From positions 704,891 through 768,890 of the forward strand of contig NMRA01000005.1 of NCBI GenBank assembly GCA_002633005.1: 64,000 nucleotides of DNA. Direction: 5' to 3'. Of the stretch, positions 28,101 through 58,033 are shown piece after piece; the first letter of the stretch is position 1; every line of letters begins with the position of its first letter. A program made the translations under genes and the position numbers. This DNA comes from Phoronis australis (lineage: Eukaryota > Animalia > Phoronida). The notes beneath the pieces are model-generated. The model searched no databases. It saw only the letters and a program-made list of their open reading frames with translations, and had not been told where the DNA came from.

Positions 28101-28163
28101 TGTGTGGATTTACTTACAATACTTATATTTATAATAACAATAACAGAAATACTAACAAGTACA

Positions 28164-28190
28164 ACGACGACGACGACGACGACGACGACG
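28164..28190. repeat. (GAC)n microsatellite
   Basis: acgacgacg... run; source of the poly-V in ORF 27536-28276. Confidence 0.85.
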
Positions 28191-28704
28191 AGTAGAAGAC
28201 TAAGAAGAAGAAGAATAGAAACAGTGTAGTCATGATAGAAATCGTGGTATTTGAAATAATTAAAAACGATTGTCAAACTGTCTGCTGACCAGTCATCTTA
28301 AAATTAGCGACTGGAAACTTTTGAACGTATTTTGCACCTTTGATATTTGGCACTGTAGAGAGTACTAAGATCAGTGAAACGAGCATAGAGAAACGACTTT
28401 CATTCAAAACCATTGGGTTGAATAGAAACTTACCCACCTATGAAGGATTGCCCGAATGCGGTTTCTTTTGTCAGGTCTGTCGATCTGTCGGTTCTCTTTC
28501 CAACAACTCGAGAATTTATACTGTTTTCTGACCCAGTTATAGCGATTGTTAAGCCCGAAATTTCTAATTTTAGAAACATTCGTGTCCCCTGTCGAGTAAT
28601 TTACGTATGAATATTGACAGTTCTTAAACCGCAATTTAAATTCTGTGTCATCTACGTGAGCTTGATTTGATTTATTACAAATGTCTTTTTTTATTAGTCA
28701 CTTA

Positions 28705-35430: not shown

Positions 35431-35487
35431 TCATGCAGGCTGTCCACCGATAAATTTCATAGTGGGGATGCCCTTGATCTTGAGTAA
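35431..35487 (-). CDS. CARD-kinase-caspase gene terminal exon 16
   Basis: LLKIKGIPTMKFIGGQPA*; strong acceptor tttttatgtttcag, phase 0. Confidence 0.65.
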   Translation of the reverse strand, partial: LLKIKGIPTMKFIGGQPA

Positions 35488-38400
35488 CTGAAACATAAAA
35501 ACCACTTGTTAACACATTTTAAATCATGTATTACCTTAATGTCAGATGTCTGTTGGTAATACATTGGAGAAACTTTTCAATGTGTCTACTGCTACACGTC
35601 AAGGGTAATTTTCAAGCCTTTAAGCAAGAGAACCCCCAACATTAACAGTCATGCGATGATAGTTCCTATTGTAAAACATTTAATAAAAAATGCTCGTAAA
35701 AACTCGCTCCTCCATCACTAACAGTTTCGGCCTAAGGCAGACAACTTGCGGTGTGACTAAGGGACAAATCCCATGATCAAGCACTGCTCACAACATTCGC
35801 TTAAGACACATAAGCGATCTAATGTTATGTATTGTTTGACTGCAACGCATCATATATTGGCATGACTAGTCGAATTTTGAAACTTAGACTTAATGAGCAT
35901 TCTAGGCTAAAAACAGTTCTGTTAATAGCCATGTGATAGATACCAGTCACGAAATTTTTACAATGTCAGAATTTTATATCACGATGCCTGTAAATTCCGT
36001 CTGTTTGGAAAATAAAGTTTTAAAATTTTAGAGCACAAACCCCAACTCAATAGAATGTCCTCATCCTATTATATCCAGCTATTCACACACTCTCTGTAAT
36101 TTCTTTCAAAAAAGTTCAAGCAAATAAATAAATATAAAAACAAAATTTCCTGCCATATGTTTTGCACGTGCGTATTCATTCTCTTGAAAATACAGCTCGG
36201 TGGAAATTGTGAAACGTCGAGTACTTGTAATAAAGAATTTTATAAAATCTTGATCGTCAATTTTATCCTAGTCCCAGCGTTCATTAAATCTGTCGACCTT
36301 ACCACAACGTACTGAGGCACACAGTTGTAGACATTTAACCTGTGTCCTTAGTAGACCGTCTGGCAACTATGAACAATTGGAGGTAAAGTTCGGAGATTAG
36401 ACCCTAGGACCTGATCACTCACAAACATTCAAGTTCCATTGGCCCAAAGATAACCCAGAGAGTGAAATCACATTGCTGGTCCCAGGGAATAACAGTCATC
36501 TCTTGTAGTCCAACACCGATTGGAACCACGAAACAAAATGCCAAAGCTGTCAAAATCTCCTTAAAGACGCAACAAATCGTGACTTTCTACAAAGGCGAAT
36601 TTCCTTTTCCAAACCAACATCATCACATTCTTACCTTTCATTTGAATTGAAATTGGCTATTGCTACGAACCTCACCCCCGGCTAGACACACTGCATTATT
36701 TGGTGGGTGAAACTTACCCACAACCCACTACAACAGGAAGTCAATGTTACTCTGAACTAGTAAATGACCTATCAGTTCTTCTCTAGCTTCTCATTTGAGT
36801 AAAGAACAATCTGTGAGACCAATTTAAAACAGAGCGGACCCTTTAAACTCACCTCTGAGAGATCATTAAAATTTTCAAGCTCTTTATTCCAACTTGTATA
36901 CAACTTGTAGTTTTCTGATTTGCTATAACTTTCTGGAAGATTCACATCTAAAACAATAACATAACCTTAAATAATGTATCGGACAAGGTATACAATAACA
37001 CCAGTCCTATTCTGGACAAAAATAATTGACAGATGACTTTTTCCTATTTTTCAAAGTCTGTCTTGTTACATATACTGAAATCTTCACAAAATGTTATTTT
37101 ATCATGTAAAAACCTAGGTATCAAAGACTTGCTCTTTTTGTTGAGAAATTATAGACAAAATCACAGTTCCCTTTACTGCCATATTGTGTGCTAAACAGGT
37201 GAAGAATCACCGGGGTACTATACTAGGGTAAAACTTCTCCAGTTTGGGACAATCTCTAGAGTTTGGGACAAGGAAACTCCTATAAGAATGAAGAATTTTT
37301 TGTTTTAGGAATTTGGGACAAGGGCCAATTTGGCCATATTTCTCAAATTTCAGTCATTTTCAACCTACAGAGTGGGCAGTTTTACCCTCTTTCCAATGAT
37401 TCTTGAATATGGGACGGCCAATATTGACTATTTCTAGAATTTGGGACAGGCTCGATCCTTGAGCAAGTCCCAAAATCGAGAATTGTTACTAACAGTACTT
37501 CAACTTTTCTAACTTTACTTATGGTCCAGTAAACAATTATCCTACCAACTACACAATCATTTGGTGTTGATCACATTAGTTTTAGGCCAAAACATGCGCA
37601 CAAACTTTAAAATTAGAGTGTAAGTAAACAAAAACATATTGATCAGACGTTTCAATCAGGTAACACAGGTGGAGAAATTGTAAATGCGCAGTCTGTTCTC
37701 CACCTGATTGAATAATGTGAACTTTTGCCTTGAGAATGCTTTATAGTGAATAATGTACAGTCTGTTCTCCACCCGATTGAATAATGTGAACTTTTGCCTT
37801 GAGAATGGTTTATAGTAAACAAACCAAAACGTAGGATCAATATGACTTTGTTTACTAACGCTAATTTTAAAGTTCATACATTTGGTGTAAACACCAACAA
37901 AGCAGGAACAACAACTAGGAGAGTGAATTTACTAAGTAAACATCGAAACACTTTCCACAAAAATGTTTAAGCTCATAGCCTTCAACCACAGTTTCTAATA
38001 TAGTAAGTTGACTATCTCCGTTACAGTGGCGGATCTACAGGGGGGGTTCAGGGGGTTTAAACCCCCCCCCTCGGGCCAGGACCCAAAAATTAAAAAAACA
38101 AAAAAAACAAAAGCGGCTCCAGCAAAACAAAAACGGCACCGCCAGCGTGTGTAAACCCCAAGTAAACCAACTTGGAAAAAATTGAGGGGGGGGGTTCACT
38201 CTGAAAATATAGTTTTTTGCGTTGTGAATTGCTGAGTCTTTGTGGCCCATCGGCAATACGCGCGGGGATTTATTGTGCGCGCGCTTCCGTCGACACTTCT
38301 GAAGTAGCCAAGCATTTTAGATGGATTCATCACTGAAAGAGCAGTTCTATAGCTGATTTCTTTAGGTAACTAGCTTCTTCACTCTAAGATATATTTTGAT

Positions 38401-41400
38401 TTGATTAGGGGAAATACTGCGGTGCCGCAACCCTGATATTCAGGCGAATTGACGTGCAACGTTTTTACCTCATCTGTCATGCCGTGTCATTCTATTACAC
38501 TCCACNGAGATGCAAATAGGTCCCGGGATGCTTCGTCAAGGTTTGAAGTAGTCCCTGATGGACGGATCAAATTTAGTTGCGCATGTAAGTCTTTTGAATG
38601 GACTTGGCATCCTCAAGGGTCTTAGTGTCAACTGAGCTGCGAAACGAGATGCTGACATTGTAGAGGCTTACAAGCTCATTGACACAGCAGTTGACGAAGT
38701 GCAAGCGTTGGGAACAAACATCGAAGATATCTGGGTAGAATGGTTCCAAGATGAGCAAATCATTGGATCCGATATACAAATTCCTCAGCAGTCTAGACAA
38801 CAGAAGGATAAGACTAACGTATGAGTAACCACTGGGGATTAAAATTTTAGAGAGAAGTTTTCAATTCAATTTTTTTGCATAGTACACTTTAGGTCTCGCG
38901 ACGGACCAGGCCAGCTTGATTTGTGTAGATGTTGAGTTTCAGTGTACTTCTGGTCCCTCGGCGAACTAGTCTTGTGATTTTTTTACCAAAGTGTGCTTTG
39001 TAAAACTATTTATCTCAGCCAGTACTGTTTGGTCCCGCGACAGATAGACTATTTTTATAGGGATAATAAGCACAGGTGTACTCTTGGTCTCGTGACGGAC
39101 CAGGTCAGCTTTTTGTGTACTCTCAGTGTACATCTGGTCCCTCTGCAAACTAGTCAAGTGTATCTTTTCACCACTGTGCACAGGATGTTTTGGTTTCGTG
39201 AAACTGTTTTCAGATAATTTGTTTCCCGATAGATTTGACGTTTTTCAATTGTTGTCAACGTGATTCAGCTTAATAAAGTGATACCTAATTATTTATTGTC
39301 GCTTTTAATAATAGACTATGAGTTGAGAACACCATCGTTCGCCAGTTTTTCTCGCAGCGAGACAGAACACATGTTTATTTCCGGACTAACAGTACAGATC
39401 TTCGTTCTTAAACAACTTGAGGCTGCTGTTACGCGATCATCTGATATTCAAGTTTTTACGCCTCGTCGGTGCTCCTTAATTATGCTCTTGAATATTTGGA
39501 AATTGTCTAAACCCCTGTATACACAACACACTTTTTCGTATACGACTTTTCGTATGCTAAAAAAGGTGTGTGTAAACAGATGTTCCAACAAAATTTTTGC
39601 TGGTGGCGTGACTCATACCCAGATGTGCACAATATGGTTTCACGAAACTTATGTGCCAAGTTCATGTGACGAAATCGAGAAGGGTTTTTAATTACCTTAA
39701 GAAAAACTCCAGAGACATGTTAAGTGCCAGAAACTTACCGGGATGTATGGAAATTTCACTATTTGGCTACAAAAACAAAAAAAATTCTTACACGGGAGGG
39801 GAAACCCCCCTCCCGACCTCCCCCCGCTCGGCGCCACGCGCCTAGGATTCGACCTTTGCGGGAATCCTAAACCCCCCCTTGCTGAAAACGTAGATCCGCC
39901 ACTGCGTTAGTCTCGACCACTGACTATTTCACACTTACAGCACATTGCATGCTTATTCAGAACCAGCTGCTTAAACTCCCTCAGTTGGTCCACGGTCGTC
40001 TTTTCCACCTTTTTGAAATCATCATCAGTGATGTAAACCCTTTTAGTGACGATGTCGTTCCTATCACGACTGTCCACAAAATCAACCAGGTGATCAATAA
40101 TTTCAGAGTGGCACTCATAAGCAAGATAAATATCTTCGCCTAAATGTTCACCCTTATAAGTTGGTTTTATCGAGAGATGGTGATGCAAGTACGACTTGAG
40201 GAAATTTAAGTCAATGAAACCATTGCTGACAATTCTCCTCTTATCTTCCTCACATTTGTGGCAAGTTTGTGATGTGCATGACTTGAGGCGGCTAGACAAG
40301 CAACTGACAAGAGCGTCAGAAAACACGCTGTGACAATCACCCGCAAAGCCACTTCTAGACTTTTCGCTCGCACCACACGAGGATATCTGTATTCCAGTTG
40401 TGCCTGAAGCCGTTAGATCGAAGGCGAACCCTTGTTTTGCTGCATAGCAGCAGTCGATAACAACCAAGACATCAGCAGGATGGTCCATTTGATGTAAGAC
40501 AGTCTTTAACTGCTCAGCCTTCAAGTGTTTCTCCCCGGTTAAGAATAAGCCTTGCTTAGAATCTCCATGCCCAGAGTAGAAGATAACCAACCTTCCCCTG
40601 CCTAATAGAGGAAAATTGGCATCCATCTTCTTTACCATGTCTTGTAGTGTCGTAACAATAGCATCTGAAGTCAAGTTTCCTTTTTGTTGGCAACATAATT
40701 TAACATTGCTTGGCCTAAAAACATAAAAGGCCATGAAAGTAAAATGAAGAACGTGCTGTATATAAAAACAGTTTGTGCAACAAAAAAGACAAAAAGTATG
40801 TATACTTCAGGGCATCATGAAAATGCCTAAAATTGCAAGGAATAATTTCTGGAAATCTCCACATTATTTTTAGCAATTCTAGGAGTGTTCATCATTACCT
40901 CATCCCGCACACAGCAGGATGTTGGAATATATTGCAAACTCGCTCGGCATCACGGTAAAACATATTCTTTGGATCAACAGTTTGATAGGTGTCGCCTCCA
41001 ATTGCAAGCAAGAACCAATTATCGTTACCTACAACAAATAAAGCAAGATCAATAAAAATTAATGGTATGTTGTCATCACAATTGTTACATTAAATTTGTA
41101 TTTTGCCCTTGTCAATGCCGACTTCTTAACCAAAGTGCTTTGGGGCTTAAAAGCATTACCCTATTCATCCAATCTTAAATTATAGTCGAATGAGCCAGCA
41201 ATTCAAGTCAAAGCGCCATTGTCAAATCCGCAATTTTAAGGACGACCAACCCCAATAAACTCTGAAGCGTTTTCTTGAATTGCCAATGAAACATAATAAC
41301 ATCAATCAATTTAATCAGAGTTTCAATTTTTTCAAACAGGCAAAATTTAATATAAAGTTTTTTGTTAAGATGTGATTTACGTTTTCTTGGCTGTGCACCG

Positions 41401-44400
41401 ACAAAATGGCTGCCAACTTTGAAAGCCAATTTGTATGAGGTTTTGAAAGCAGAAATACTCATTCGAATACGAACAAAGAATACGATTAATGAAAGGTTCA
41501 CACTTCTCAAAAAACTTGCAAAATGTCGTTTTGACGGTTTTACAGAGGGGAAAATTTGTGTTTCAAAACATATTATTCTGTACCGTGATCGGAACTACAT
41601 GTACTTACCAATGGGTGCACGATTGTATTCACCATGAGAAGGACAAAACACTGGATTTGCAAATCTGTTCACGAGACAACCTTTGCAGTAGAATATACAT
41701 TGGCTATCAGGGCAAACAGAGATGCCAACTGAAAAGTAAACAAACACCAGCAATGACAGCCATCAAATCATAGCATGTGAAGTAACTAAAACGCATCAAC
41801 ATATTAGACATCATCTTCCAATTTGATTTAGGACACCAAAAGACCGATTCTGTGACGAAACCATTACACATATCTATTTACAGTAAAAACAAAGAACAGT
41901 CATCATGGGTAGTAGTTAACTGATGTTAGGTTGGTTATTGAACAAAGAACCAGTTGGTCTGGGGTCATAAATGATACATCTAGTCATACACAACTCGGAT
42001 ACATTTTATTTGCCAACTATCCCATTGAAGAGAGGTTGCTCTAAATGAGATAGTCCTGATGAAAAAAGTGTCTGTAGCACATCTCCAACACCTTACCCCT
42101 GGGGTTCATTAAGCACGATATGCACGTTTCTTTGCAAGACTCCTCAAACAGTTTAAAGTCGTTCATCGTCATCAAATCCTAAAAACAGAAAGTTTCTGTT
42201 TAAATCCTGCAACTTTACCCCAAAAAGTGTGAAGGAGTTAAAAAACTTGATATATCTATGTAATAAACTTTTGCTGTTTGCATCAGCAGTCCAACAGTAC
42301 AAAATTATACAGTTAATGTGAGTAAACTTGAGCGTACAAGGTGAACAGAATAGTTATTCCCGCACTGATGACAAACCTAAGATCATTGCAGCTCCCTCTG
42401 TGATAAGTAGCAAGAATAAAACCAATTAGTGGGGAACTTCTATGAATAAGTCACCCTCTCATCGAATTTTTCTTGCAACATACTATTTTGAATCTGGAGT
42501 TAAAAACAATACAAAATGCTAACTTATCAAATGCAAATTAAATAAACATCCATTTGGACTATTAATCTAAACCCAGCACACAGAGGAAGTAAAATATGAA
42601 CCCCTTCTGCACTTCTGTAGACTGACAAACCTTTTGTAAACTTGCTAACCACTAAATTAAGTGAAAATTTTCATTGAAATGAAACAGCAAAAGTAAATTT
42701 AGTCTGGATCTATCCATGAAATTCACTGGTCAGAACATCATGTATACACATAATACGGCACCAATGGGCATATTACCTTCAGCACATTGCACAAATCAAC
42801 TGCAGTCTTCCGTTCCTGTGGAGGCTTCAAGCACCCAATGGCAGCATCCAAATATTTTTCACTCACCTTCCCCCACATGTTCTGCAAACAGACGAAAACG
42901 ACTCTATAGCATGCCTCCAAAGTCACAAAACAGCAACAAGAATAGGGGAAAAGCGAGCAATGTGCCCGCACTGTTAAAGACCTTTTTGCCACACAAAGGT
43001 AGCTTTTGTCTACATTTGACGCCTGTACTCTGAGTAGCTGTAGGGGCAAACGTGACCTATGGGCCAGTCCATTTTTGAGTACCAATTTGATGCCCGTTAT
43101 TCAAGGGAGATAACAAGTTCTCAAAATGCAGGCCACCCCATAAGTGATTACTGTTGTATGAGCCCATTCTACAAAGCGAATAAAGAAAGAAAACCATAAT
43201 TTATTTAAACCAAAATTAAGAAAAATTCATCAAAGAAGTCCTGTATGTTTTCATCTTTGTTTGGTCTTGAATTTTTCTTAATGCATTGCGCACGATTGTG
43301 TTAACAATTGTAAATAACTATAGCATTCTTATGTATCATATGTTGGTCATATCACGTGACCTACAGTTAGAAAAGATATAGTCCTGGGCCTCGGTCGGGA
43401 CTGAGATCTACTTACAATAACTAAAGGTCACATGATGTCACCAACATATGGAGGGTAAGAAGGCTAACAATTCTTACTTACATAACATCTATGCGCTGAC
43501 TTATATAACACCACAATAGGACAGATTGGCTCACCTTGCGGGCTACTTTCCAATTTCGATATTTATTTATCAACCTCAAAAATAATTTCAGGATTTTTTA
43601 AAGTTCTAATTTTATTGTACTACACTACAGACAAATACAACCACTGTTTTTTTTACAAATTAAAGTGTCTTACATGATTTTACAGGTTAATTTTATGTAG
43701 AAATCAAGCAAATTGAGTGATTAAAAATTTCTAACTACTTTTTAGAGAGATATCAGCAAATTGTCATTGAAAGATAGTTTCATTAAAATTTACAAAGAAA
43801 TATGTTGTGTTATGAATGTACCTTTTTTAAAAATGAAACTTTGACTTGAAAAAGATGGTAACGTCATAACAACAACACTTAAGTATAAAGTGTATTTTTA
43901 CAACCCTTGATCTTTCTTCTTTAAGAAAATAAAATTTACCTTTTAATGATTGACACAGTCTAGTTCTTCTGGTATTTGACTTTGAATTAACGTTACTTAA
44001 TCAGGTCCTACGTTATCTCGACTAACAGAACCTATCTGAATCTAACGGCAAATGAGTCCATTTGTCTTTCTCTGGACTTCACACGATAGGGGTTGCTCCA
44101 TCTTTCAATGAAGATACAAATTTAAAATATCTTAGTTTTGTAGAACACAGTTATCTAAGATAAGACTTTGTTTATAACAAGTCAAAATTAAGATGAATTT
44201 AAGACAATTCTTAAGTGAAGACGCTTTGTGGAACAAGCAGCACAATCATGACAAATCAAAGTTTTAAAATTTTTGTAAAAATAAACATGTCACCTTAAAG
44301 TGTTCATATCTCAAATGTAAGCTCATTGCCATTCTTTGATATTGTGGCGACACAATGAAATACACTTCATCGCCACCTGGTGATGGAGTACTTGGTGGTG

Positions 44401-47400
44401 AGAGTTCAACGTTCTCGAATCGCGATTTAATAACCAAATAGCATTTCCCAACATTTTGTAAATCCTTTGCGACCGAAATGTCACCAAATCATTGCATACC
44501 AATGCTGTATTCAAATAACTCATGCACAAATGTCCAATATCTAACAATGTCCGTGAATGAAAGCAATTGCATTTTGCCCGTCCATTTGAAAGGTGGTCTA
44601 GGGAACGTTGCTGTCGTGCTTTCAGAGACATAAGAATTGCATGTTGAATGTATGGAATTAGATACCTTGTCGACCCAGAGACTGAGTGCCTCTTTAATCA
44701 TCGTCCAGTCATTCTCACAGTCTTTGAGTACACGGTGAATATCGTCGATTGAATTTAAGGTCAACAAGCGCAGCATGACTGAAAAAGCAAGGCGAGTCCA
44801 AGATCTGAAATAACCACAGCGTACCAAACCCTTGCACAACTCTGCTACTGCAGCAACAATGATAAAAAAATTTCCAGTTTGAGACAATCTCTAAAATTTG
44901 AGACGCCGAAATTTAAGGTGAAATTGAATTTTTTCATTCTGAAGATCGAGACGTAGAAAAATTTTGGTGTTCATTGTATTTCTCAAATATTGGGACACTG
45001 AGAACCAGTTTGATGCCTGTTATTCAGTGGGGAAACTTGTTCTCAAAATTCGGGCACGTTATATCAGACTATTACCAGACACTGTGCATCACCAAAACTG
45101 CATTTGAATACTTAGGACACCAAACTTGCATACTTTTCAGTAAATTTGCAGATATCACATGTAGACCAAACATAAAAAATTTGAGCTTGTCAGCGTGTTA
45201 GCCTATTGGAACTGTGTTCAGCTGATACTTTTCCAACTAGTTTTTACTCACTTTAATACACTTAGTGATATGATAACCAAATTTTTAAAATTCAGAATGG
45301 TGGACAGCGTTTGCAGTAATGAAAAGATCCAATTAATCAATTAATAGGTTACTTACTGAAGTTATTAATAAATAATTACGTTTAATACATGCCGCAGTGG
45401 TAATATCTACCATGAATTGTGATAAGTCACTACAAAGAGCTCCATGCTTCAAAAGTTATCATCATTTCTTAAACCAAAAACATATTTACAAAAAGTGTGC
45501 CCATGAATCTGTACTGGACAATGTTTTGCACCTGACGACATGTTCTTAAGCATTCAAAAGAGTTTGAAATAATTATTCATTGCAAGCCTCTATAAACACG
45601 CACTACCATACTGTCTGTCAAAATATCTCAACGGGCAACATATGCGCATGAAAACAACTTGCAATACAAATTCAACATTCTTTGGAACAACGAGGTAGAA
45701 ATTCACAACAGCCTCTCGCGCTTTGTCATTTTGACAATATGTAATAGCTGTAGATAATCGACCAATCACAGAGAGAAGTCACTGCTTACAGCCCCGTGAT
45801 TCGTCAGTTATCTTTACAGTTGCTATATTAAGAATGAATTGGAGAAAGTTTTCCACTTAGGAGCTCACATTTTAGTTAGAATATAATGAAATGAATATAA
45901 TGAAATGAATATGTATTAATTTAATATAATGAAATGAATATGTATTTTCAATATTTCTAATCAGGCAGTAGGCACTTTCAACATTGTTAGAAACCGTGGC
46001 GTGTGAAATGAAAAAATAACAGCTTTTGAAATCATTTTTGACCAATACTGACAAGTTTTGTCATATGTGAGACACTTCAATATGTAAGAATGTCATATTT
46101 CACAGAGATAATGGGAGGATTACTTGTGTAACAGACTGACTACTAAGATGATCATTTTATAGGTGTTAGTTCTAAGATACACCTGTAGGTGGCTTTATCA
46201 ATCAATATGTTTACTACAAGTTGTTGCTGGTAAGTTCCATAAGCTGATCATACACCATCAGAACAGAAATACTTTTGTTCTCGAAATTGATAGGTCACGC
46301 TAGGTGACCAGGTATGACTATGTAAGGTATTCATGCACTTTGAAATTCTTCTAACTATAACAGTATAAAGATGATACTACAAAAGAAATCATCTGTCTAA
46401 GATGAATGATTTTTTTAAAGAAACATTCAAGGCATTATAACTTATAAGTACTTCAGTCAACCTACTAAGTCCAACAGAATACACGTCATGTCGTGGCCTG
46501 CTTTTTGCCATGTACTGCAAAGCCTCCGGGTCACTGTAAGCTTGATTGACAACAGATGAAACAGTGGCACACGATCTGTCATCATGAATGTGACAACTCC
46601 ATCCTAGATCACCCAGACGTACGTTCAGCTTCTCATCCAACAGGATGTTTCTTGGTGCTATATCCCGATGAACAATCTGTTTTCTAAAAATAATAACAGA
46701 CACTAATAACAATGACAATGAGTTTGACAAACCTTTATGAATTAATTAGTTTTGTTTTGTTTAGGCCAAGTAAATAAGAGCAGAACACTAATTAGTTGAA
46801 ACATCAAACATTTGACGAACTTGAACTGCAGCCTATAATTCAGTAGGAAAAGAATACACTGAAAGAAACGGCTACAAGAGAGATCCTATTTATTAGCATG
46901 GGATGAAGATGAGAGAACAGGAATACCCTTATAGGTTGGTTGCCTTACAAATTGCACTCCACTCATGGGAATCACCTGTAGATTGCACCTTACAAACCCT
47001 TTGCCTTTCCCATGTAATAAATCTAATCAGGTGGAAATAATTACAGGCACACTACTTTCTTAAGGAAACTTTCATGCTCAATTAACTCAGGCATGCATTT
47101 ATGAATAGGCTTGACTTGATGCTTGGCTGGGACATATCTTGCTCTCAACAGAATTATTTTGATGTTCTAAAGACCCTTTCATGTTGACTTAACTCCAGTG
47201 TGAGGGGAGGGGGAGCTTCGATGTAAACAGCGCAGTTAACTGGACTGTTCATACTGGCTTCGGTAGTTAATGACCATCAAAGCAAGCGGTTGGTGCCGCT
47301 GTCGTCATCGAAGTTATCACAAGGTAGTGTTGCACGCTAAGATTTTTTTCAGTGTTTCAATTTGGAAACATTTACATGTGCTAAGTGACATTAAACTTAT

Positions 47401-50400
47401 TTTTAAATCGATTGGTTGTTATTAGAGAAAAAAAAGTAGCAGTAGTGATGGCACTACCCTGTAACTGTTGACGATAACAGTGGCACCTGGCGATAACTCC
47501 GATTGGACCAAAGTTAAGCGTTCATACTGCACCGCAGCGTCAACGCTGCCATGTTAACTGGAGCTGTTAACTGGGATCCAGGACCGGAGTTAAGCGTTCA
47601 TACTGACCGCAACTCCCCAAACCATCGACGCATCGACATTGGTATGAAAGGCCCTTTAGAGACAATAGCACCCAGCTTAGTCTTGGTGTAGCAAGGTCTG
47701 TAAAGGCTATTCCAATGTCACGGCTATTTCAGGGTAACAAACAACCAAATGTACCAGCATAAACTCACTTTGAGGTGGTTTTGTTGTGAAGGTGACAAAC
47801 AGCTTGACAAAGTTGATAAGTGATTCTCAACCTCATCTCCACATCAATCTCCTGGCTGGCAATGAAACGTTCCAGTTCACCTTTGACCATGTAAGGGGAG
47901 ACAATTCTCCTGGGAGGTTGCTCACACATGGCAACCACGGGAAGAATGTAAGGGTGCTTCACATGTGCAGATTCTTTTTCCTGAGGAAGACAAAAGCCAA
48001 AAAGTTACATGTCGTGAACACATCCACTAAAACAAGAAACTGTAGGAACACCGCATTTATCCACCTTCACTCTTATCAGGCTTCTATTGCGAGTCAGCAT
48101 GAGTGAATAATTGGCTGATAAGCCACCTCTGGAACTACTTTTGGCTGAATGGATGACCAGGCCATAAAATGATAATTAGCCAAGACCAGTTACTATTATG
48201 CAACAAAGAATAATGTCTTGCATCACCTAGCCTTGGTGAAAAGCTGTATACTGTATTGGCTCAAACAAACGCTTAGAAAAATTCATTTCACGGGGAGGGG
48301 ACGCTTATTGTAGTGAGCCTACGGCAGTTGAAACCCGGTTTCCCAAACGGGTAAAATCGGAAGCTAGGATTCATCAAATTTACGCTCTGTGACGTATTTG
48401 TAGCCTATGACAGCCTTTCTACAAAATTGTGGTGCATTGCTATCAACTTCCGTTGTTAAATTACGATAATTTTTCAAAAAATTGTGCTCATCACAGGGCG
48501 AAAACTTGCCGACTGATGCGTCGCTGAATCGCGATCGTCAATAGGAAAACTTGTACTCTTGAATAAAAATATAGTTTCGACTCAACAAATTACCTGAAAT
48601 CTTCCTGATGTTTTACAATTTTTAAAGTTCCTGTGGAGTCCAGATTAATTGCGATTAAGTCCAAATGTGCGCTACATCGTACTCCACAACACGAGAAAAA
48701 TCTCTGGATGAACACACATGTTGTTGTCACGTGACGTTTGTTTTGAAGGTCGTCTGCGTATGAGAGTGAGTGAGCGTGCGTGTGCGGGTCATCGACGATA
48801 GACTTTTTTGTTACAAAAGGCGGAGGATTATGCAAGAAAATGGCGTTTACTAGATTGTTTTTCACTTAAACGGCTGTAACGTGCAAGGTGAGTGCGCTCG
48901 CAGAGTCACATCTCGGAAGTTTCCGGTTTGACGGATGACAAAGAACGATCTCAATGAAATTACACAAAGTCGTTTTAGAGCTTGTAATAGCTATACAAAA
49001 CGTATTTTGAGTATTAAAATGCATTTTTTCCAAAACCTAAATAACACACGGAGTAGTTCTACATTTATACAATCCTAACTTGGGTCCTATATTTTTGTAT
49101 TCGTGCGCGCCGAATGAAAGTAATCGTGAGTGTTTCTGTGTTGCAAAATCTCTTATCCTGGGCCGATTTGAAAAATTCAAAGTTGTATTCGTATTTGTTT
49201 TCGCTCCTCTTTTCAAATATTACAGTAAAAACTACGTAAAATTCTCTCCATAAAAAGTACAGTTGTTAGGCTAGACTGTAATCAGCTGATCATATCCGCA
49301 TGAGCGAAGCCAATTATCCTCGCTCGTGACTCGATGACTAGAGCAGCTTGGCGGCATCCCTTTGATCGTGAGCCGAGTGCGACTCAGCCAAGGTGGATAA
49401 ATACGGTCTACTTCAATTTTCCATACCCCGCCGTTTACCTTAACCACTGGGGTTAGAACCAATCTTATTTAGTGGGAATGTTCATAGCATGTAAGTGGCA
49501 GGAAAGAAGGGGGCGGGGGGGTAATGAGAAAAGTTATTAGGCAAAACTTATGCCGTCACAGATTGAAGTGAGCTAGACGCAGTGGACTTAGCTGAATGCA
49601 TTGGATGAGAAAATAGGGGTCATAAACCAACACACCTGTTTAGCGTATGAGTTTCAAAGACAAAAAGCAAACAATAAGTAATGCAAGGTCACTTCCTTAA
49701 CATCGTGCCACATGCTGACATCACACTTAGTTGAAGACAATCCCACACACGAGTCATGTCATTGAAATCATGTCTCAACGTGAGGCCTTTAGATACCTCA
49801 AAAAGGATGCCAGACTGCAGCGACTGTTGCTACAGAGGACATAACTACACTTGCGTTTCACATCAACTAACTAAAGTTGTTGCCAGTTTATGATGTCCGT
49901 TGGCGAGAATCCACTAGATATGTCCGTTGGCGAGAATCCACTAAATTTGTCTATTACGTTCTAACATGACTTCTCACTGAGGACGTTTAACCTTGACCTT
50001 TCCCCTTTAGGTCTTACCATAGTGAACTGTTTGCCACTTCGACGACTTCCAGTGTCATTCCATTCCGTTTTCACAACAACTTCCAACTGTCTGAACTTCT
50101 CGCGAGCTGCATTATTAAATGAATAAAAACTATGAGTTGACAAATTAAGGTTCTTTTAAATCAGATGTGTATTGAAAGTTAGAAATGTACTGTCTTTTAG
50201 AATGCTTGCTATAAGTAGAATGTTGAAGTCCTCATTTTTGAAAGTAAAATTCTTGGGGAAAACAGCATTCTACAGAAAATCTCGCTACTGTGTATTTAAT
50301 ACTAAATGGCTTCGGTATAATTTTCAGTAACAATATGTTTAATTCATGAAATTAAAAAATTACTGGTTAGTAACAAAATTACACACATTTTACAATGGTA

Positions 50401-53400
50401 GAGCAAACTATGAAAATTAAAGCCATGTCTTCTAGTCAAAACTATAGAGTGTGCTGAAGGATAAGGGCAATGCATTATGGGAAGTGCTTCAGTTGTGATT
50501 ATTGCCTGCTTGTTGTACTGGTGAAGTGCATGGATTTAACAGGTGTGAATGAAATAATTGCAGTTGCAAGAGCGCACGGATGTTTAAAAGAACTACACAG
50601 TCCTCAATATGATGGCATGCCGTGCTGAGCGAGGATATTGAGAAAGAAACCTCAGTATACACTAGTCATTCCCAAAAAAAACAATTAATTTCATCAAAAA
50701 CAGACACTCGCAGCACGAATAAAAATGTTCATTCAAGGTTTCATCAGGATAACTGACCTATCGTCAGGATTTTGAGTGACGGCTTAACTGACCAATCAGA
50801 ACACATCATTCTGGACACACCTTTGTTTCCAAGCCACCATTTTTCCCCGACAAACAACACGTTGCCGGGTAAAACTTGTTTGTTTGTCGGCATTACGCAA
50901 GGGGGCAAAGCTTGCGATTGGTCAATTATATATAATAAGACAGCAAGTGTCGACATTCCAGTCAGGTAACATCCATGTAGTGAAATGAGAGTAGCAAGAG
51001 ATACAGGTAGGTCATCACCACAGTTTCAGGGTCACTGAGCTCTGCATGTTATTCAGAGAATCAGTAGCATGCTGGTCCTGAATGGCCAATGACTCTTTAA
51101 TGTGCAGTAATTCCTGTACAGGTTCTCTACAGATAACACTAACTGATTTGGCTTGGTTATTGTTGCTAACACAATGCCTATAGACGTTGCTTTTGTCTGA
51201 GGTGTGATGTTCATTCAGTCTGTCACAGAGGCATCTCTGTGCGAGTCCGAAACAGAATTCCTTGCAGTTGTCACATTCAACCTTATATACAACATTACTT
51301 TTATTTAATAAAGGGATAGGTGACTTCAGTTTACACAGTCAGCATATTTGAAAGTTTACACGAACCACATAGACGGAACGTTGAACAAACATGAACTTTT
51401 TTATTTATGCAGCGATTGTTAATCTTACTATGGCCAAAAACTGATGTAATTTCACCTGTTCAGATTCTGAAGACGCTTTTAATGAAGAATATGCATCCAT
51501 AAAGAAAGTTTTTTGCTTTCAAAAGTTTGCGAGTTTGTTTGGACAAGGCTTAGATGTATAAATGAGACGAGCAAAAAAGCATGTCTTTTCAGTTTTAGTT
51601 TTATGCAGTTTATGGCATAGTGAATGGTTGGAAATGTGCAATATTATTGAAATAACTACCTTTTCAGAATCGACACAGCCTGTGCATTGTAACGGACTGA
51701 ATTATATGTTTCAGTATGCGGAATACATTATACAATTCAGACGTACAGATGTATTTATCTGATCACAATTTTTGTCTTGCATTATGTACATTTCTGTACA
51801 TAGTAATTCGAGTAGAGACCATAAGACTAGAAAATGTGAGACCGCCAAGCATGGGAAACTAGCACCGGCATGAACGATATTGGCTACAGGGGTCATCTTC
51901 CCAACTTGTTGTTGGGCTATAGAATTGAGCAAGTTGGGAGCAACGGGAAAACCCCGTAATGGGGGGGAGGACTTCAACAGTTTTGTGCACTGAAGGACAC
52001 ACCTGCGCTATGAACTTTGCGAACGCCACAACAAAATTGTGACGTTGTCTTAAAAACATGCTCAAACTTGAATAATGACTAGGTCACTTCTAGCAGGCCA
52101 TTGCTTTTTCGGTTGGAGTCGGCTAGACGGACAAAAATTTGTGATCTAAGCAATATTAGAAATAACTCAAAATAAAACAAATTACAACCCAATACTTAGA
52201 AAAAAATCTCCTTTAACTTTTAAGTATATCAATTTGATCTTTGTCGTCATTTTTGCAAGACAGGTACAACTCCAAAATCATTATGTACATAAAATCATGG
52301 CTATCCACTTTAAGCCACTACAAAACATGGAATGGAGACAATTGCTCCAGAGACAAACCTTTTAGTACTTTCCCATAGTCACCTTCCCCTACAACTGTTG
52401 TGGTAACTCCAATGTCTCGGTCAAACGTGGCTTTGTCCAACAGATAAAAAGCTTGCCACTTTTCACCAGGAAATGGTGCGGCAACGTGTTTGCTGTGAAA
52501 ATATATTACACTTTGTAAGAAATTCCATGATGGCCATACGAACTTTCACACCTAATGATTCCACAATTATCGGAAAAACCATTTGCTGATTGCTTAAAAA
52601 CATTCAATAACAAAGCAGACCCAAACACTAGCAACTTATCAGACTACAATCATATTTTCAACGTATACTTTAATTATCGCGTACTTCCATTGCTAAGGAT
52701 CAAATTTGTAGGTAAATCTTTGAATAGACTGATGCTTATATTCCAAGATCGATGTAACTGCCACGAGCACGCATGTTTTTCCACAAACACAAACAATCAA
52801 ACTGAAACTGCAGTGACAACATTTAAAATTTTAAACAGCTCGCCTCAAAAATAATAATAACTGATTAAGACCTCACTAACTTCTGACGCAATGCCCACAT
52901 TACCTGATTTTTGAAATGTCATTGGTAGGGGAGGTGGGTGGTCTACTCTCCATAGCATGTACATGCCTTGCCAAAGACCCTAGGGAACTAGCGCCCCCTA
53001 CAAAATGGAATAGTGAAAGAAAATCAGCAATTAGCTCAACTAAAGCTTGCAACAGATTACATCTTCAACCTTCGGTATTCCACTCCAAAAGGCAAACGAA
53101 AGCAGAAACAAATTTTAATTAAAATTTCAAATTCTAAGTGTCACCTTAAGGATTTTACCTTCTGTCACTCTCACAACTTGCTTAGGTTTACGAGACTTCG
53201 TGTTTGAGCCATGACCCTGCAACAAAGACCAACACGCTGACAACAAGTGCTTCACATAATTTTTACCACAAATGGGATCAGATAACAAACAACTGTATCT
53301 CTACTGTTCACCTTTCAAGTTCATCATCAAAAATCTCACCTGTTTCCAAACAATGAACATTACTTCACTTTTTGTAAAATAATGAATTTCCAAGGTAGAA

Positions 53401-56400
53401 AATGAACTTCAAGGCAAACACCTGGGGTTTTCTGTCTTTTATAAGTGTCTATGGTCATAAACCTTGCAATAGGATCACAGCATGACAACAGTTAAGCCAG
53501 TGAAAAGCCACTTCTAACCTTACACAACATTACAAATATCTCTCATTTTGTTTCAACTCCAAATGCCAGCAGGTTTCCAAATCCAGATATCAATTTAGTC
53601 CATCGATTATAATACAATACCAGATATTAACTATAGTGGCAGGCTTTTGGAAATTAAGAAAATGGTGGGCTCTTGTTCAAGAAGAATTCTTACTGTTTTA
53701 GGTAAAATACCCGTGGTTAAGACACTTTTATTGCCCAAGATTGTTCATTTGCTTCAATCCCTCCCTAACCCCTCCATTGACATGACTCAAGAATTAGAGC
53801 GAGTTTTTTTGGCTTCATTTGGAATAGGAAGAATGACAGAGTTAGCTGAAATGAAATTGTACAAAATCAGGATAATGGTGGTTTAAGAATGGTTCATGTT
53901 CGTTTTTTATTAAGTCTTTGAAAATATCGTGGCTTCGTAAACTATTCACCTCAAATACCATACGTGACCTTGCAGAGGCAGTTTTGGGTAGCAATGTACG
54001 GTTGATAACTTTTTTAAAATGAGGGACACTTTCTTCCAAAAAATACATGAAGGAACAGAGAATCTGTTCTGGAAGCAAGTTTTAAGCGATGTTGTGCTCC
54101 TGTTTCAAATGTATGACAAAAATGAAAATATTATTTACTCTCCCCTATGGTATATAATTCAAAGATTAAAGTCGGTAGAAAATCTATTTTCTACAAGACC
54201 TGGTATTAAAGGGAAGTCTATCGTGTGTGTGATTTGTTTAATGCTGAAGGTTCTTTTGTGTCATACAAAGAACTCTGTAACAGTTATAACTTTCAACCTC
54301 CAATACTAGAATTCTATGGATTAAGAAGTGCAACCTTTGCAGCGTACAGGGGTCTTAAGAATAGACAAGAAAATATCTTTTTACCAAGTTTTCCAAGTTA
54401 TATTTAAAAAATTTTGCATAAATCACAAGCGGTAAATATTTGTAACACCTTAGTACAGACACTTCAGACAGCTTGTAAATATAAAAACGAGTGGTCACCT
54501 GAGATAGATATAAACATTGTTATAAATAATGTAAATTTTAGTGAACCTGATACATGGTGGAGAAAAGTAAATAAACTCCCCTTCAATTGTACAAAAGATA
54601 CAAAATTCAATTTCTTTCAATACTGCTCAGTTCACAGAATATTGCCAACCAATAATTAGTTGCATAAAACTGAAATAAAAACAAGTGATTTATGCTCTTT
54701 CTGTGGTGAACACAGTGAAACTTTTATCCTTCCGTTTTGGGAATGTCGTCTCGTCTCCGCTTTCTGGCTCCTGTTTACTGAACAGTTAAAACAAACGTAT
54801 CATGTAAATTTTCATGTGGACAAAATAACGATGTTTTTCGCTTTTTTGGAAAACACTCGGTCGGAAAATAATAACATTAATCTGTTGATCATACTAGCAA
54901 AAAATTACATATTTACCCAAAAATTTGCTAAAAACTCTCAATTTCCAAATGTTTGTAAACTTTATTAAGGTTACATCCTGAAGAAAATACGATACTTGTT
55001 GACTAGTGATTTAATGTTATTCTTTGTAAACGATGTATACTGTATTGCTTTATGTGACATGTGAATTATCATGCTAGAGTAATATAAAAATTTAGTCCAT
55101 CGTAAAGTGTTGATACAGGTCTTTTGTTTGCCATCAAGACTTTCACACCACTAACGTACCACAATTCAAAGAGTGACTAAGACTCAGTTTAGGTGAAACC
55201 TCTTGACTGTAAATACTGGTTAACATTCAAAGGCTTTTTCAGCAAATTTTTATCATATTTTTCTCACATTCCAAACAGATCCCAAAATCACAACAAAGAG
55301 TCTCAGAATTAACGACACTAGTGGTTCTAGTACTAACTTGTAAATCTTCTGACAAAGTACAAAGTGCCGCAAAACTGGTCAAATTTTTAATGAACTAGTT
55401 ATATACTGTAAGAAGCCTTAATCATAAAATGTATGGCAAAATCTCACAAATTTCGGACACAATTTGGGGGACACTATTTTTTCATTAAATGAAACACAGG
55501 AACAAAATCTGCTGGTTTGCCTGATCCAACTTTTGTACCACAGCTACTGAGAACAGACAATGTTTTATACAAAACTAAGGAGATTTCACTGCAGTTAAAC
55601 AAAATAAAACAGGTTTAGAGCAGTTTTTGAGGGACATCATAAAGCCTCTGAGAACATGGACAAATAATATCAGTTACCTTTATCTCCTGGAGTTTACTTT
55701 CAAGGAGTTCTGCTTCATCACGATAGTCAGCTTTACGGAGAAGTTTCAAGAATTCCGGCCAGTACCGAATTCTCATGGAAAAGTTTGCTGATAAAAGGTT
55801 TTCCATAGCCCGAGTATTCCCGTAATTTGTATACGCACACTCCAACTGTTCCTGTTATTTAAAATATTGGTCATGATGACTGACATGAAAATTCTGTTTA
55901 ATGCAGAATATGAAATTTCACAGAAATGAAAGTCTACCCAGACATACTACTATAAGCCTAGAGAAATCACATCTTTAAACAATACCATGACGGCGTTTTC
56001 CCGTTGCTCCCAACTTGTTTGATTCTATAGCCCAACAACAAGTTGGGAAGATGACCCCTGTAGCCAATATCTTACATGACTGATTAACTCCATTAGTTCG
56101 ATAATTGCTCTAATCTTCAGTAAGATCCTATCTAGCCTACCTTGGCTGTGCTGTTAAAAATAAAAGTTAGGTTATAATCTATTTGAACATAAACCAATAA
56201 CATTTCTGAAATCCTTATCAAATGATGATCATTTTTAGTTTTTGAATCGCCAAAATCACCCAACTACAACGGTTACCGAAGTTACGACAATCTATTCTTT
56301 CCGAACGGGCCAATTCGTTCTGGGTTTGACTGTGTTCACACATGGTCTGCAATAAGCCTGGTAGATAATTGGCCTGCTTGTTGTCATAACAGACAAAAGA

Positions 56401-58033
56401 CTGTGCTTGGCAGTTAACAAAGGAGCTAGATGTTATCCCACCGTCACAACCCTCTACGTCTGGTGAAGTCACTGAATGCGGGAAAACGCCGTCATGAATT
56501 TAAATGGCGTACTTATTTAGGTGATTTAAGTGATATAGGACCCTAGAAAAATGAACAAATTTGACCAACTTTGAACATTATATCTCAGAGATGAGTGATA
56601 AGATTCTTATGACAGTTTGGTAAACTATGCTTTGTGTACGCTCTCCAAACATGGACTGTTATGATTTTCATGAAAAAGAAATCAGGCAGCATGAAACGAA
56701 AACAAAATGGTAATTTAGAAAACTGTATCAGCATTTTCAAGATTTCATTTTAACATTGAATATCACAAACATTTTCAAGTCTGGTCTGCACACCACCTGT
56801 TGGCCACATCACGTGAATTAATGAAGATGAGTCTGAAAAGATTTCTGCCTCCGGCCCGGCGGACTCGAACGCAGGACCTTCTGCTATCTGTGCAGACGCT
56901 CTTAGCGTGCAGGTGGTATGCAAACCAAACTTAAAAATGTTTGTGATACGTTATATTCTTGTTTACTTTAGTTTGACTTTTATGACTTATTACAAACATT
57001 TTTACATTTGGTCTGCACACAACCTGTTGGCCACACCATGTGGCCTGATAATGTGGCCAACAGGTGGCGTGCAGACCAGACTTAAAAATTTTTGTGACCT
57101 ACATTTCCACTCTGGTTCCATAATTTAGACATTTAACATATTAAACAAAATTTGGTCATGATACTGGTACCATGGTTTTGCTATCAATGCACCTTCCTTT
57201 TTGCTAGATTTAACTAAAAAATACACTGTCACATGACCCAATTCAGTAGTGTCAGATTGATAAAAAGTCAAACATCAAATTTTACAGGAAGGCTTTCTAC
57301 TCGAGTCAAATAAAACTTTTACTGAGTTAAAGAAGCTTTGAACATAATACTCGACTATCTTCTCATTTCTAATCCTGAAAAATGGCTCGAAAGACTCTCT
57401 CACCAACATCAATGTGTTCAGGGGTGTGTCTGTTGTTGTGAAAACTTAAATTCTGTCTTGGTGTGAAGGAAAAATTGTTTCATGAAAAGTGAAATTTAAG
57501 ATGAGAGAGACTCCAAAAACTGACTTAAGTTTGCAAAAACATGCAGACATAACAAGGGATCATCTATGCTTCGATGAGATGTCAAAAATGGACTTTGATA
57601 TCATCAAACTCATAAGCATTTGTCAGTATCAAAATGGCTTATGTTGACACTTCACATGTAACAAGTAAAGTGATCCCAGCGCCACCTAGCAATGAACTTT
57701 AGTCGCCATAGTGTCACCCACCTTTAAATCCGATGTTATTTATATACCGAAGCTGATGTACTGGTTCAAGTTATCATCGCATTTTAGTTCAAATGACACT
57801 ATTCTCAGAGTTAACGTGGTGAAAATGGGGCTAAAACTGACAGGACAGTACAACTGAGATCTGCTTCAAACAGTGAACAAACTATATGATCCCTGGAACA
57901 AATAACTTACTACTTCACTTCGGGACAAGTGAATATCATCCTCCAGGTAACACTTGATGTTACAAAAAGTGATTCTTGAAGTAAGCTTACGGGTACACTG
58001 CCTAAGAGCTTTTCTTCTCAAGTCATCCTCCAT
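35431..58033 (-). CDS. Multidomain protein: CARD + IRAK/Pelle-like protein kinase + RING-like Zn finger + metacaspase-like (peptidase C14) domain + unknown C-terminal domain, 859 aa
   Basis: 16 coding exons (minus): 58033-57911, 55851-55678, 53216-53159, 52997-52904, 52492-52359, 50106-50018, 47980-47769, 46683-46466, 44778-44666, 42881-42777, 42178-42097, 41728-41609, 41028-40899, 40714-39939, 36947-36853, 35487-35431. Total 2580 nt; every junction is GT-AG and phase compatible, with no internal stop. Kinase motifs appear in order: GEGDYGKV, VVVK, E, HPYIL, HRDIAPRN, DLG, YSDPE, DVYSVG, C..PPQER. Protease motifs: YSGHG and IDCCY. Confidence 0.85.
36853..36947 (-). CDS. CARD-kinase-caspase gene exon 15
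   Basis: YVNLPESYSKSENYKLYTSWNKELENFNDLSE; gttttag / gtgagt; phase 1 to 0. Confidence 0.75.
37689..37817. repeat. 69-bp tandem duplication
   Basis: cagtctgttctccacc..gattgaataatgtgaacttttgccttgagaatg at 37689 and 37758. Confidence 0.85.
38024..39904 (+). mobile_element. Non-autonomous hAT-family DNA transposon, copy 1 (intronic)
   Basis: TIR cagtggcggatctac / gtagatccgccactg; 5-bp TSD cgtta (38019-38023 and 39905-39909); transposase remnant near 38510-38830: LKGLSV..KRDADIVEAYKLID...TNIEDIWVEWFQ...IQIPQQSRQQKDKTNV, resembling PRKRIR/ZMYM-type hAT transposases. Confidence 0.85.
39939..40714 (-). CDS. CARD-kinase-caspase gene exon 14 (metacaspase-like catalytic core, 776 bp)
   Basis: LVIFYSGHG...VLVVIDCCYAA...IQISSCGASEKS...HSVFSDALVSCL; ttttag / gtaagt. 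Confidence 0.92.
40899..41028 (-). CDS. CARD-kinase-caspase gene exon 13 (caspase-fold first strand and helix)
   Basis: NDNWFLLAIGGDTYQTVDPKNMFYRDAERVCNIFQHPAVCGM; ttgtag / gtaatg. Confidence 0.85.
41609..41728 (-). CDS. CARD-kinase-caspase gene exon 12 (RING-like finger)
   Basis: VGISVCPDSQCIFYCKGCLVNRFANPVFCPSHGEYNRAPI; tttcag / gtaagt. Confidence 0.85.
42097..42178 (-). CDS. CARD-kinase-caspase gene exon 11 (start of RING-like finger)
   Basis: DLMTMNDFKLFEESCKETCISCLMNPR; ttttag / gtaagg. Confidence 0.82.
42777..42881 (-). CDS. CARD-kinase-caspase gene exon 10 (kinase subdomain XI)
   Basis: NMWGKVSEKYLDAAIGCLKPPQERKTAVDLCNVLK; ttgcag / gtaata. Confidence 0.82.
44666..44778 (-). CDS. CARD-kinase-caspase gene exon 9 (kinase subdomains IX-X)
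   Basis: IMLRLLTLNSIDDIHRVLKDCENDW...WVDK continues DVYSVGL; tttcag / gtatct. Confidence 0.82.
46466..46683 (-). CDS. CARD-kinase-caspase gene exon 8 (catalytic loop, activation segment)
   Basis: IVHRDIAPRNILLDEKLNVRLGDLGWS...QAYSDPE...HDVYSVGL; ttttag / gtaggt. Confidence 0.92.
47769..47980 (-). CDS. CARD-kinase-caspase gene exon 7 (kinase subdomains III-VIa)
   Basis: EKESAHVKHPYILPVVAMC...SPYMVKGEL...MRLRITYQLCQAVCHLH; cctcag / gtgagt. Confidence 0.9.
50018..50106 (-). CDS. CARD-kinase-caspase gene exon 6 (kinase VAIK-equivalent lysine)
   Basis: AREKFRQLEVVVKTEWNDTGSRRSGKQFTM; atgcag / gtaaga. Confidence 0.85.
52359..52492 (-). CDS. CARD-kinase-caspase gene exon 5 (kinase Gly-rich loop)
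   Basis: ...TTTVVGEGDYGKVLK; tcacag / gtttgt. Confidence 0.88.
52904..52997 (-). CDS. CARD-kinase-caspase gene exon 4 (linker)
   Basis: GASSLGSLARHVHAMESRPPTSPTNDISKI; ttgtag / gtaatg; phase 1 to 2. Confidence 0.65.
53159..53216 (-). CDS. CARD-kinase-caspase gene exon 3 (linker)
   Basis: GHGSNTKSRKPKQVVRVTE; ttgcag / gtaaaa; phase 0 to 1. Confidence 0.65.
53606..55088 (+). mobile_element. 5'-truncated L1/Tx1-clade LINE with 14-bp TSD, antisense in the intron after coding exon 2 of the kinase gene
   Basis: TSD aatttagtccatcg at 53592-53605 and 55089-55102; frameshifted ORF2 C-terminus (SRRILTVLGKI.VVKTLLLPK; HRILPTN; LCSFCGEHSET). Confidence 0.88.
55678..55851 (-). CDS. CARD-kinase-caspase gene exon 2 (CARD C-terminal half)
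   Basis: EQLECAYTNYGNTRAMENLLSANFSMRIRYWPEFLKLLRKADYRDEAELLE. Confidence 0.85.
55986..56496. mobile_element. MITE with 18-bp perfect TIRs
   Basis: catgacggcgttttcccg ... cgggaaaacgccgtcatg; related inverted fragment near 51869-51950. Confidence 0.7.
56851..56906 (-). mobile_element. tRNA-derived SINE head fragment
   Basis: Minus strand agagcgtctgcacagatagcagaaggtcctgcgttcgagtcc; B-box GTTCGAGTCC. Confidence 0.45.
57911..58033 (-). CDS. CARD-kinase-caspase gene exon 1 (CARD N-terminal half)
   Basis: MEDDLRRKALRQCTRKLTSRITFCNIKCYLEDDIHLSRSEV; exon starts at 58040 after ctttcag; gtaagt donor. Confidence 0.8.

Follow-up and report, generated by a model that had tools for sequence, protein, structure and literature searches.

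The DNA analyzed here is a window of 64,000 nucleotides (nt) from the phoronid Phoronis australis (contig NMRA01000005.1), and all positions given are those of this whole stretch. Its minus strand carries one spliced animal gene, running from 58033 to 35431, which encodes a kinase domain, a Cys/His finger and a metacaspase-like protease preceded by a predicted CARD. An original prediction, made from the letters alone, claimed that 16 GT-AG exons splice into a single open reading frame of 859 amino acids (aa). Rebuilding the chain by coordinates from the window reproduced this: 16 exons separated by 15 GT-AG introns give 2580 nt and 859 aa, in a frame that is open throughout and whose sole stop is the terminal one. 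Eleven of the 15 acceptors have at least 10 pyrimidines in 15 positions, compared with 17% of AG sites across the region. The exons are as follows (P numbers designate related proteins, described below).

Exon 1: 57911..58033, minus strand; ATG and first half of the predicted CARD (aa 1-41), no Pfam match by itself
Exon 2: 55678..55851, minus strand; second half of the predicted RIG-I/MAVS-type CARD (aa 42-99), Pfam CARD_2 E-value 5.5e-4, below the cut-off
Exon 3: 53159..53216, minus strand; linker, RNA cover in minus orientation (bin 52819-53400)
Exon 4: 52904..52997, minus strand; Ser/Pro/Thr-rich linker, aligns with the linker of P0008
Exon 5: 52359..52492, minus strand; kinase Gly-rich loop, G185-G190
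Exon 6: 50018..50106, minus strand; kinase beta3 Lys207, with Lys in 8/8 sequences
Exon 7: 47769..47980, minus strand; kinase alphaC Glu225 to alphaE, Pfam E-value 2.3e-7, 13/13 PDB matches to RIPK4/RIPK2
Exon 8: 46466..46683, minus strand; catalytic loop Asp302/Asn307, DLG Asp320 and activation segment, Pfam E-value 1.2e-13, donor confirmed by RNA
Exon 9: 44666..44778, minus strand; kinase alphaF-alphaG, both ends confirmed by RNA
Exon 10: 42777..42881, minus strand; end of the kinase C-lobe, both ends confirmed by RNA
Exon 11: 42097..42178, minus strand; start of the Cys finger (C459, C462), invariant in 7/7, acceptor confirmed by RNA
Exon 12: 41609..41728, minus strand; remainder of the finger (C473, C478, C482, C485, C496, H499), donor confirmed by RNA
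Exon 13: 40899..41028, minus strand; protease beta1 and alpha1 with pocket Asp534, acceptor confirmed by RNA
Exon 14: 39939..40714, minus strand; protease core (His600, Asp638, Cys640) and insert (C702/C705/H730), Peptidase_C14 E-value 1.2e-5, RNA depth at most 12
Exon 15: 36853..36947, minus strand; C-terminal extension, RNA cover in minus orientation, no homology support
Exon 16: 35431..35487, minus strand; final codons and TGA, RNA cover in minus orientation (bin 35100-35710)

Gene structure and transcription

Three stranded raw-read RNA runs with the same species label (X1-X3) were mapped to positions 35100-53400 and then to 39800-46800, and an intron was listed when at least three reads crossed it. 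The second stretch includes introns 8-13. Four of these six were listed, with lengths exactly as predicted: 46466>44778 (1687 nt; 11 reads, 0/6/5 in X1-X3), 44666>42881 (1784 nt; 12 reads, 2/4/6), 42777>42178 (598 nt; 16 reads, 2/6/8) and 41609>41028 (580 nt; 11 reads, 3/2/6). Every read over these introns is in minus-strand RNA orientation. The last two introns join the kinase to the finger and the finger to the protease, respectively, and are junctions that the original prediction had singled out for checking. Because both are seen in RNA, separate kinase and protease genes, named there as the outcome that would overturn the claim, are very unlikely.

The remaining two introns of this stretch, 42097>41728 (within the finger) and 40899>40714 (within the protease), are absent from the listing; the halves of the finger and of the protease that they split are kept together in relatives. 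In 35100-53400, where repeat-derived reads dominate, no intron of the gene is among the 15 joints listed (there were 52 further joints). Exon bins there (exons 3-5, 15 and 16 among them) are covered only or mostly in minus-strand orientation. Over the whole gene, four of the 15 introns are confirmed, nine lie in mapped stretches yet are unlisted, and introns 1 and 2, which belong to the CARD, lie outside the mapped stretches. The gene is transcribed at a low level in all three runs.

The exon at 44778-44666 completes kinase subdomain IX. It forms the middle of a long open frame (44267-44890) that was considered as a separate gene and rejected, having no Pfam match. No second copy of the gene was found within the window. 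Residues 751-859 have no detectable homology to bivalve C-termini (263 of 500 shuffles score equally well), and the idea of a ubiquitin-like fold common to bivalves was dropped because the shuffle test did not support it.

Repeats are found within and upstream of the gene. An inverted repeat pair of 1.9-2.4 kb (38024-39904 and 61621 to approximately 64000; 89-97% alike) has short terminal inverted repeats. Of the two, the one lying in intron 14 (38024-39904) has a 5-bp target duplication and begins 35 bases beyond the exon 14 donor. It adjoins an in-frame stop, and retention of this intron would yield a shorter protein ending just after the protease. Upstream of the first coding exon, six dispersed 51-nt look-alike units with a conserved core lie at 59125-60540.

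Predicted domains of the protein

The kinase domain is matched by Pfam in exon 7 (E-value: 2.3e-7) and exon 8 (E-value: 1.2e-13). By sequence it has the features of an active kinase: the Gly loop (G185-G190), beta3 Lys (K207), alphaC Glu (E225), catalytic Asp and Asn (D302 and N307) and DFG Asp (D320) are all present, and the Lys, Glu, Asp, Asn and Asp are kept in 8/8 sequences. The closest solved structures vary with the query. They are RIPK4/RIPK2 for exon 7 (13/13 PDB matches), a mixture of PhK, Snf1 and BTK for exon 8, and plant receptor-like kinases (RLKs) and IRAK4 for P0017 of Ptychodera. The domain can thus be described as RIPK/IRAK-Pelle-like, with the subfamily left unassigned. Ser/Thr kinases usually have a Lys in the catalytic loop and a Thr in the P+1 loop. 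The catalytic loop of the Phoronis protein is HRD-x-A-x-R-N, which has Arg at +4 and lacks Lys at +2, and its P+1 loop has no Thr. Because both residues are missing, this kinase may have Tyr or dual specificity. The kinases of the hemichordate relatives are non-RD.

The finger has eight Cys/His residues, C-x2-C-x10-C-x4-C-x3-C-x2-C-x10-C-x2-H, that are invariant in 7/7 members. (The P0005 model misses the first half of the finger and was left out of this count.) These residues point to a conserved two-zinc finger. Its spacing is RING-like, but ligand 4 is Cys and ligand 8 is His, which differs from the C3HC4 RING pattern at both positions. An invariant Gly directly follows the last ligand; Arg is usual at this position in RING ligases. 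The earlier description of the finger as "RING-like" fits the eight ligands and their spacing; searches of Pfam and the PDB gave no clear match that would confirm RING identity.

The protease has the conserved domain Peptidase_C14, matched in exon 14 above the Pfam cut-off (E-value: 1.2e-5). His600, Asp638, Cys639, Cys640 and Asp534 are invariant in 7/7 members. The structure of bivalve relative P0004, modeled with AlphaFold 2 (AF2; mean predicted local distance difference test score [pLDDT] 66, mostly 75-94 over residues 51-190), is a clan CD fold with six core strands. Its top Foldseek match is legumain, and GPI transamidase is also among the closest folds. VIA comparison gave Z-scores of 19.5 for legumain (root-mean-square deviation 3.0, 212 residues aligned), 18.3 for plant metacaspase 4, 17.1 for MALT1 and 16.8 for caspase-9. 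The Pfam match, the His-Cys dyad and this caspase/haemoglobinase fold place the protease in clan CD family C14.

Within C14, the protein does not have the features of a true caspase. The caspase motif is QACxG (PMC8878197), with a basic pocket that accepts Asp; here the motif is D-C-C-Y/H and the residues at D534 and D638 are acidic, in 7/7 members. It does have the acidic pocket of metacaspases, with Asp on alpha1 and L4, and in P0010 the Asp534 motif lines up with the Asp on alpha1 of a fungal metacaspase. In TbMCA2 and MALT1, two Asp residues, one on alpha1 and one on L4, form the pocket for basic residues (PMC4357240). Because D534 and D638 match these residues, the protease is predicted to cut after Arg or Lys, as do MALT1 and metacaspases. 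A profile of the family has a fungal metacaspase as its top PDB match (E-value: 9.5e-10). The earlier call of a "metacaspase-like" protease with a His-Cys dyad is upheld by the retained pocket residues and by metacaspases being its nearest PDB sequences.

Two metacaspase features are missing. In the P0004 model, beta4 and the core strand that follows are separated by just 18 residues containing no strand, so that the eight-strand sheet is absent; the Phoronis protein is equally short at this point, and the hemichordate relatives have a long insert there. In seven sequences, no Asp is invariant in the stretch from His600 to Asp638 or beyond Cys640, so that the calcium site (four Asp in the reference site of PMC4357240) is not conserved. 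The protease is predicted to need no calcium, like MALT1. A CxxC…H/Y insert follows the catalytic Cys in 14/14 proteins (the Phoronis protein, eight from hemichordates and bivalves and five fused to GTPases). It is also found in 4/5 short unnamed relatives and in 1/78 other proteins.

The N-terminus is predicted to form a CARD of the RIG-I/MAVS type. Exon 2 is similar to Pfam CARD_2 (E-value: 5.5e-4, 20.3 bits) over positions 39-91 of the 93-position profile, and exon 1 (41 aa) fills the missing positions 1-38. A second scan gave an E-value of 1.5e-4; exon 2 alone was scanned, at 20-22 bits. The predicted CARD had no match in the PDB, and pairwise comparison of CARD with DED gave no signal.

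Related proteins and neighboring features

Exon 14, used as the query in an exhaustive search, matched 12 related proteins, those named being from Glandiceps, Saccoglossus, Potamilus and Sinanodonta; a word-based search with the same exon found no match. A second search added a relative from Ptychodera. In seven hemichordate and freshwater mussel gene models, the kinase, finger and C14 protease occur in the same order. Together with the RNA joints, these models bear out the claim that kinase, finger and caspase-fold protease lie on one polypeptide, and they replace the lone four-domain oddity implied at the outset with a wider family. The Phoronis protein is collinear with Glandiceps XP_077979683 over residues 107-646 (585 columns, 30% identity, E-value: 3.6e-59), a sequence match beyond what chance can give. 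Core identity is 24-31%, and each mussel genome has several paralogues. Gaps in two mussel models start or stop at intron positions of the Phoronis gene, which suggests that these intron positions are common to both.

The N-termini are more variable. Pfam detects tandem DED in two of the seven relatives' models, no death fold in five and a CARD in none. These proteins constitute a conserved bilaterian family, apparently undescribed, in which the kinase-finger-protease core is fixed and the N-terminus can be swapped; the predicted CARD form has been seen in this gene alone. In databases, the relatives are named "uncharacterized" or "hypothetical" or carry single-domain labels.

Three mussel proteins without a death fold (P0011, P0013 and P0014) have N-terminal regions of 250-390 aa with Gln-rich stretches and a twice-repeated Ala-Glu-Leu/Val-Trp motif, and P0011 and P0014 have Gln-Gly-Pro tandem repeats. 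Such N-termini may be an alternative oligomerization device that replaces the death fold. Four short unnamed relatives from ENA assemblies (P0002, P0006, P0010 and P0015), some starting approximately where exon 14 starts, are probably single exons of further members, in which case the range of the family exceeds the named species.

In a profile search among longer proteins, the first five matches were GTPase-fused proteases (two from named Rotaria, three unnamed), followed by bacterial caspase-family proteins. The five (P0018-P0022; 1655-1842 aa) combine a VLIG/URGCP/GBP-type large GTPase with a C-terminal metacaspase-like protease that has the CxxC…H insert. P0019 of this rotifer set is a GTPase-protease fusion at residues 409-663 and 1419-1595. 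Such a fusion is possibly a GTPase-gated protease effector. A quick tree of 76 domains was built from sequences gathered by similarity to the family (57 of the 78 other sequences were kept); the set contained no eukaryotic metacaspases, caspases or paracaspases. In this tree, the 19 animal-side domains, including the GTPase-fused ones, lie on one side of a branch with a Shimodaira-Hasegawa-like approximate likelihood ratio test (SH-aLRT) value of 93, below the starred level. The kinase-finger members and two unnamed proteins group at 86.

Elsewhere in the window, a neighboring gene on the minus strand (approximately 17000-25700) has a VWA domain (E-value: 6e-28) and three look-alike Cys-rich exons, of which one weakly matches chitin-binding CBM_14; the gene resembles those of invertebrate matrix proteins. 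Scattered plus-strand exons with PGP-x-x-Y repeats (approximately 5500-16200) are ODF3/SHIPPO-like by eye, and two pieces of them have no Pfam match. A decayed 3' fragment of a long interspersed nuclear element (LINE) lies at 27264-28297 (zf-RVT E-value: 1e-8). An inverted counterpart is present in intron 2 at 53600-55062. An assembly gap of approximately 450 N is located at approximately 8335-8780.

Proposed mechanism and comparison with known systems

The mechanism that we propose, and consider reasonably probable, is that the protein clusters through its death fold and relays an immune or death signal by kinase trans-phosphorylation and MALT1-like cleavage at basic residues, with the finger as a brace or ubiquitin link. 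The CARD (or the tandem DED of two relatives) would dock onto an upstream death-fold filament; its RIG-I/MAVS type hints at nucleic-acid sensing. Once clustered, the RIPK/IRAK-like kinase domains would phosphorylate one another. Clustering or phosphorylation would then activate the protease, which would cleave after Arg or Lys, independently of calcium, as MALT1 does. The finger would bind two zinc ions and either link the complex to ubiquitin or brace the kinase against the protease. An immune or death role fits both the exchange of CARD for tandem DED and the rotifer GTPase fusions. The original idea that CARD-driven oligomerization could activate kinase, ligase and protease together is, like the ligase itself, hypothetical.

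Several observations weigh against this mechanism. What is directly supported is the anatomy, expression and conservation of the protein, and every functional step is inferred. The exon 2 score lies below the CARD_2 cut-off of 28.2. The evidence for a link between CARD and kinase consists of phase, splice sites and the occurrence of death folds in two relatives, introns 1 and 2 being beyond the RNA-mapped stretches. As five of the seven relatives' models have no Pfam death fold, docking through a death fold is not family-wide. The missing catalytic-loop Lys and P+1 Thr leave the substrate class of the kinase unfixed, and the structures predicted are those of bivalve relatives standing in for the Phoronis protein. 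For the finger, none of six members matched the Pfam RING models, the PDB profile search reached RNF4 with an E-value no better than 1.7 and the AF2 model has a pLDDT below 50. Ligase activity of the finger is the least supported step.

An unlikely alternative is that the protein is a scaffold or processing enzyme with no ligase activity and no special immune role, in which the finger is a zinc hinge and the two enzymes work in development, in stress or in the maturation of proteins. This would suit the low transcription in all three RNA runs (of unspecified conditions), the presence of the processing enzymes legumain and GPI transamidase among the closest folds and the failure to recognize the finger as a RING. 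However, the death folds, the RIPK/IRAK-type kinase and the joining of this type of protease to a large GTPase in rotifers point to conflict or immune systems, and both the rapid divergence of the core and the multiple mussel paralogues suit immune genes.

Still less probable is that the CARD exons are a small gene of their own and that the actual protein, like most of the relatives' models, has a disordered N-terminus ahead of its kinase, finger and protease. Introns 1 and 2 lie outside the stretches mapped with RNA, intron 2 contains LINE fragments and, on the strand of the gene, three AATAAA sites, and the relatives' models mostly lack a Pfam death fold and never have a CARD. On the other hand, the end of exon 2 and the start of exon 3 are in phase 0 with normal splice sites, exon 3 requires an upstream exon, death folds occur at the same position in two relatives from two phyla, and several of the relatives' models are visibly incomplete. 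It is highly improbable that the protease is a killing effector in bacterial caspase-like style, cutting a pore-former or death executor directly with the kinase as a mere trigger: its nearest look-alikes are bacterial and phage caspase-family clusters (score 0.92) and it is found again as the C-terminal effector of unrelated sensors, but no executor gene is recognized in the window and the split of animal from bacterial proteases in the tree gives no indication of recent borrowing with a bacterial partner.

More broadly, and tentatively, clustering and cleavage of the kind proposed could be the work of an ancient and overlooked bilaterian one-chain signalosome. The protease would represent an extra Arg/Lys-cutting caspase-fold lineage beside MALT1, distinguished by a zinc insert and under the control of the kinase and finger of the same chain. 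Exchange of the N-terminal death fold (CARD here, tandem DED in others), or fusion of the protease to large GTPases in rotifers, would connect it to different sensing pathways in different lineages, and the whole would be a caspase-independent death or immune pathway that is absent from model animals. Deuterostomes and lophotrochozoans alike have retained a metacaspase-like protease, its catalytic residues intact, together with a kinase and a finger, and surveys that rely on QACxG or on resemblance to human caspases are likely to overlook it. If active, these proteins would add a proteolytic arm to invertebrate immunity, an example of death-fold exchange around an unchanging enzymatic core and a one-gene system in which to order kinase, ubiquitin and protease steps.

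The protein shares parts with several known systems. Like MALT1 and other type 1 paracaspases (PMC4357240, PMC5978004), it has a death-fold N-terminus (predicted), a six-stranded clan CD protease, an acidic alpha1/L4 pocket and predicted Arg specificity. Type 1 paracaspases are described as a death domain, Ig domains and a paracaspase domain (PMC5978004). No Ig domain was found in Pfam scans of the relatives or of the exons studied here; the Phoronis protein instead has a kinase and Cys finger, as well as the D-C-C-Y/H motif and CxxC…H insert, and in the P0004 fold comparison legumain and metacaspases come before MALT1. Type 2 paracaspases are a protease domain alone, unlike the kinase-finger-protease chain (the tree contained no paracaspases). 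The combination of a death-fold adaptor with a kinase close to RIPK4/RIPK2, IRAK4 and plant RLKs recalls RIPK1/RIPK2 and IRAK/Pelle. Those kinases have no protease. The CARD predicted here is N-terminal and of CARD_2 type, Lys is missing from the catalytic loop of the Phoronis protein, and the kinases of the hemichordate relatives are of non-RD type.

Metacaspases and prokaryotic ortho- and metacaspase-like proteins are similar in that a fungal metacaspase is the top PDB match and the SGH and D-C-C motifs are as in bacterial caspase-family proteins. They differ in that the Phoronis and bivalve proteins have no room for two extra strands and no conserved set of calcium Asp. Metacaspases have been described as absent from animals, with caspases and paracaspases listed as the animal C14 proteases (PMC5756287). 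Kinases fused to caspase-fold proteases have been reported in lophotrochozoans from Macrostomum lignano and Eisenia andrei, each with a single species-specific kinase-prodomain caspase that falls within caspase trees (PMC11463336). The available text of that source mentions no finger or death fold, and these proteins are set apart from the present family by description rather than by sequence. Two bdelloids have 101 and 69 divergent C14 proteins (PMC11258130). This expansion is likewise one of divergent animal C14 proteins, and the Rotaria GTPase-fused proteases with a CxxC…H insert group with the present family; these are URGCP/GBP-type fusions with no kinase or finger, and the available text of PMC11258130 describes no architectures. 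A full-text literature search found no description of the kinase-finger-protease architecture in the main texts covered, and the source data of PMC8195603 and tables of PMC11463336 may contain members. All of the parts, and the logic by which they would signal, are of known kinds.

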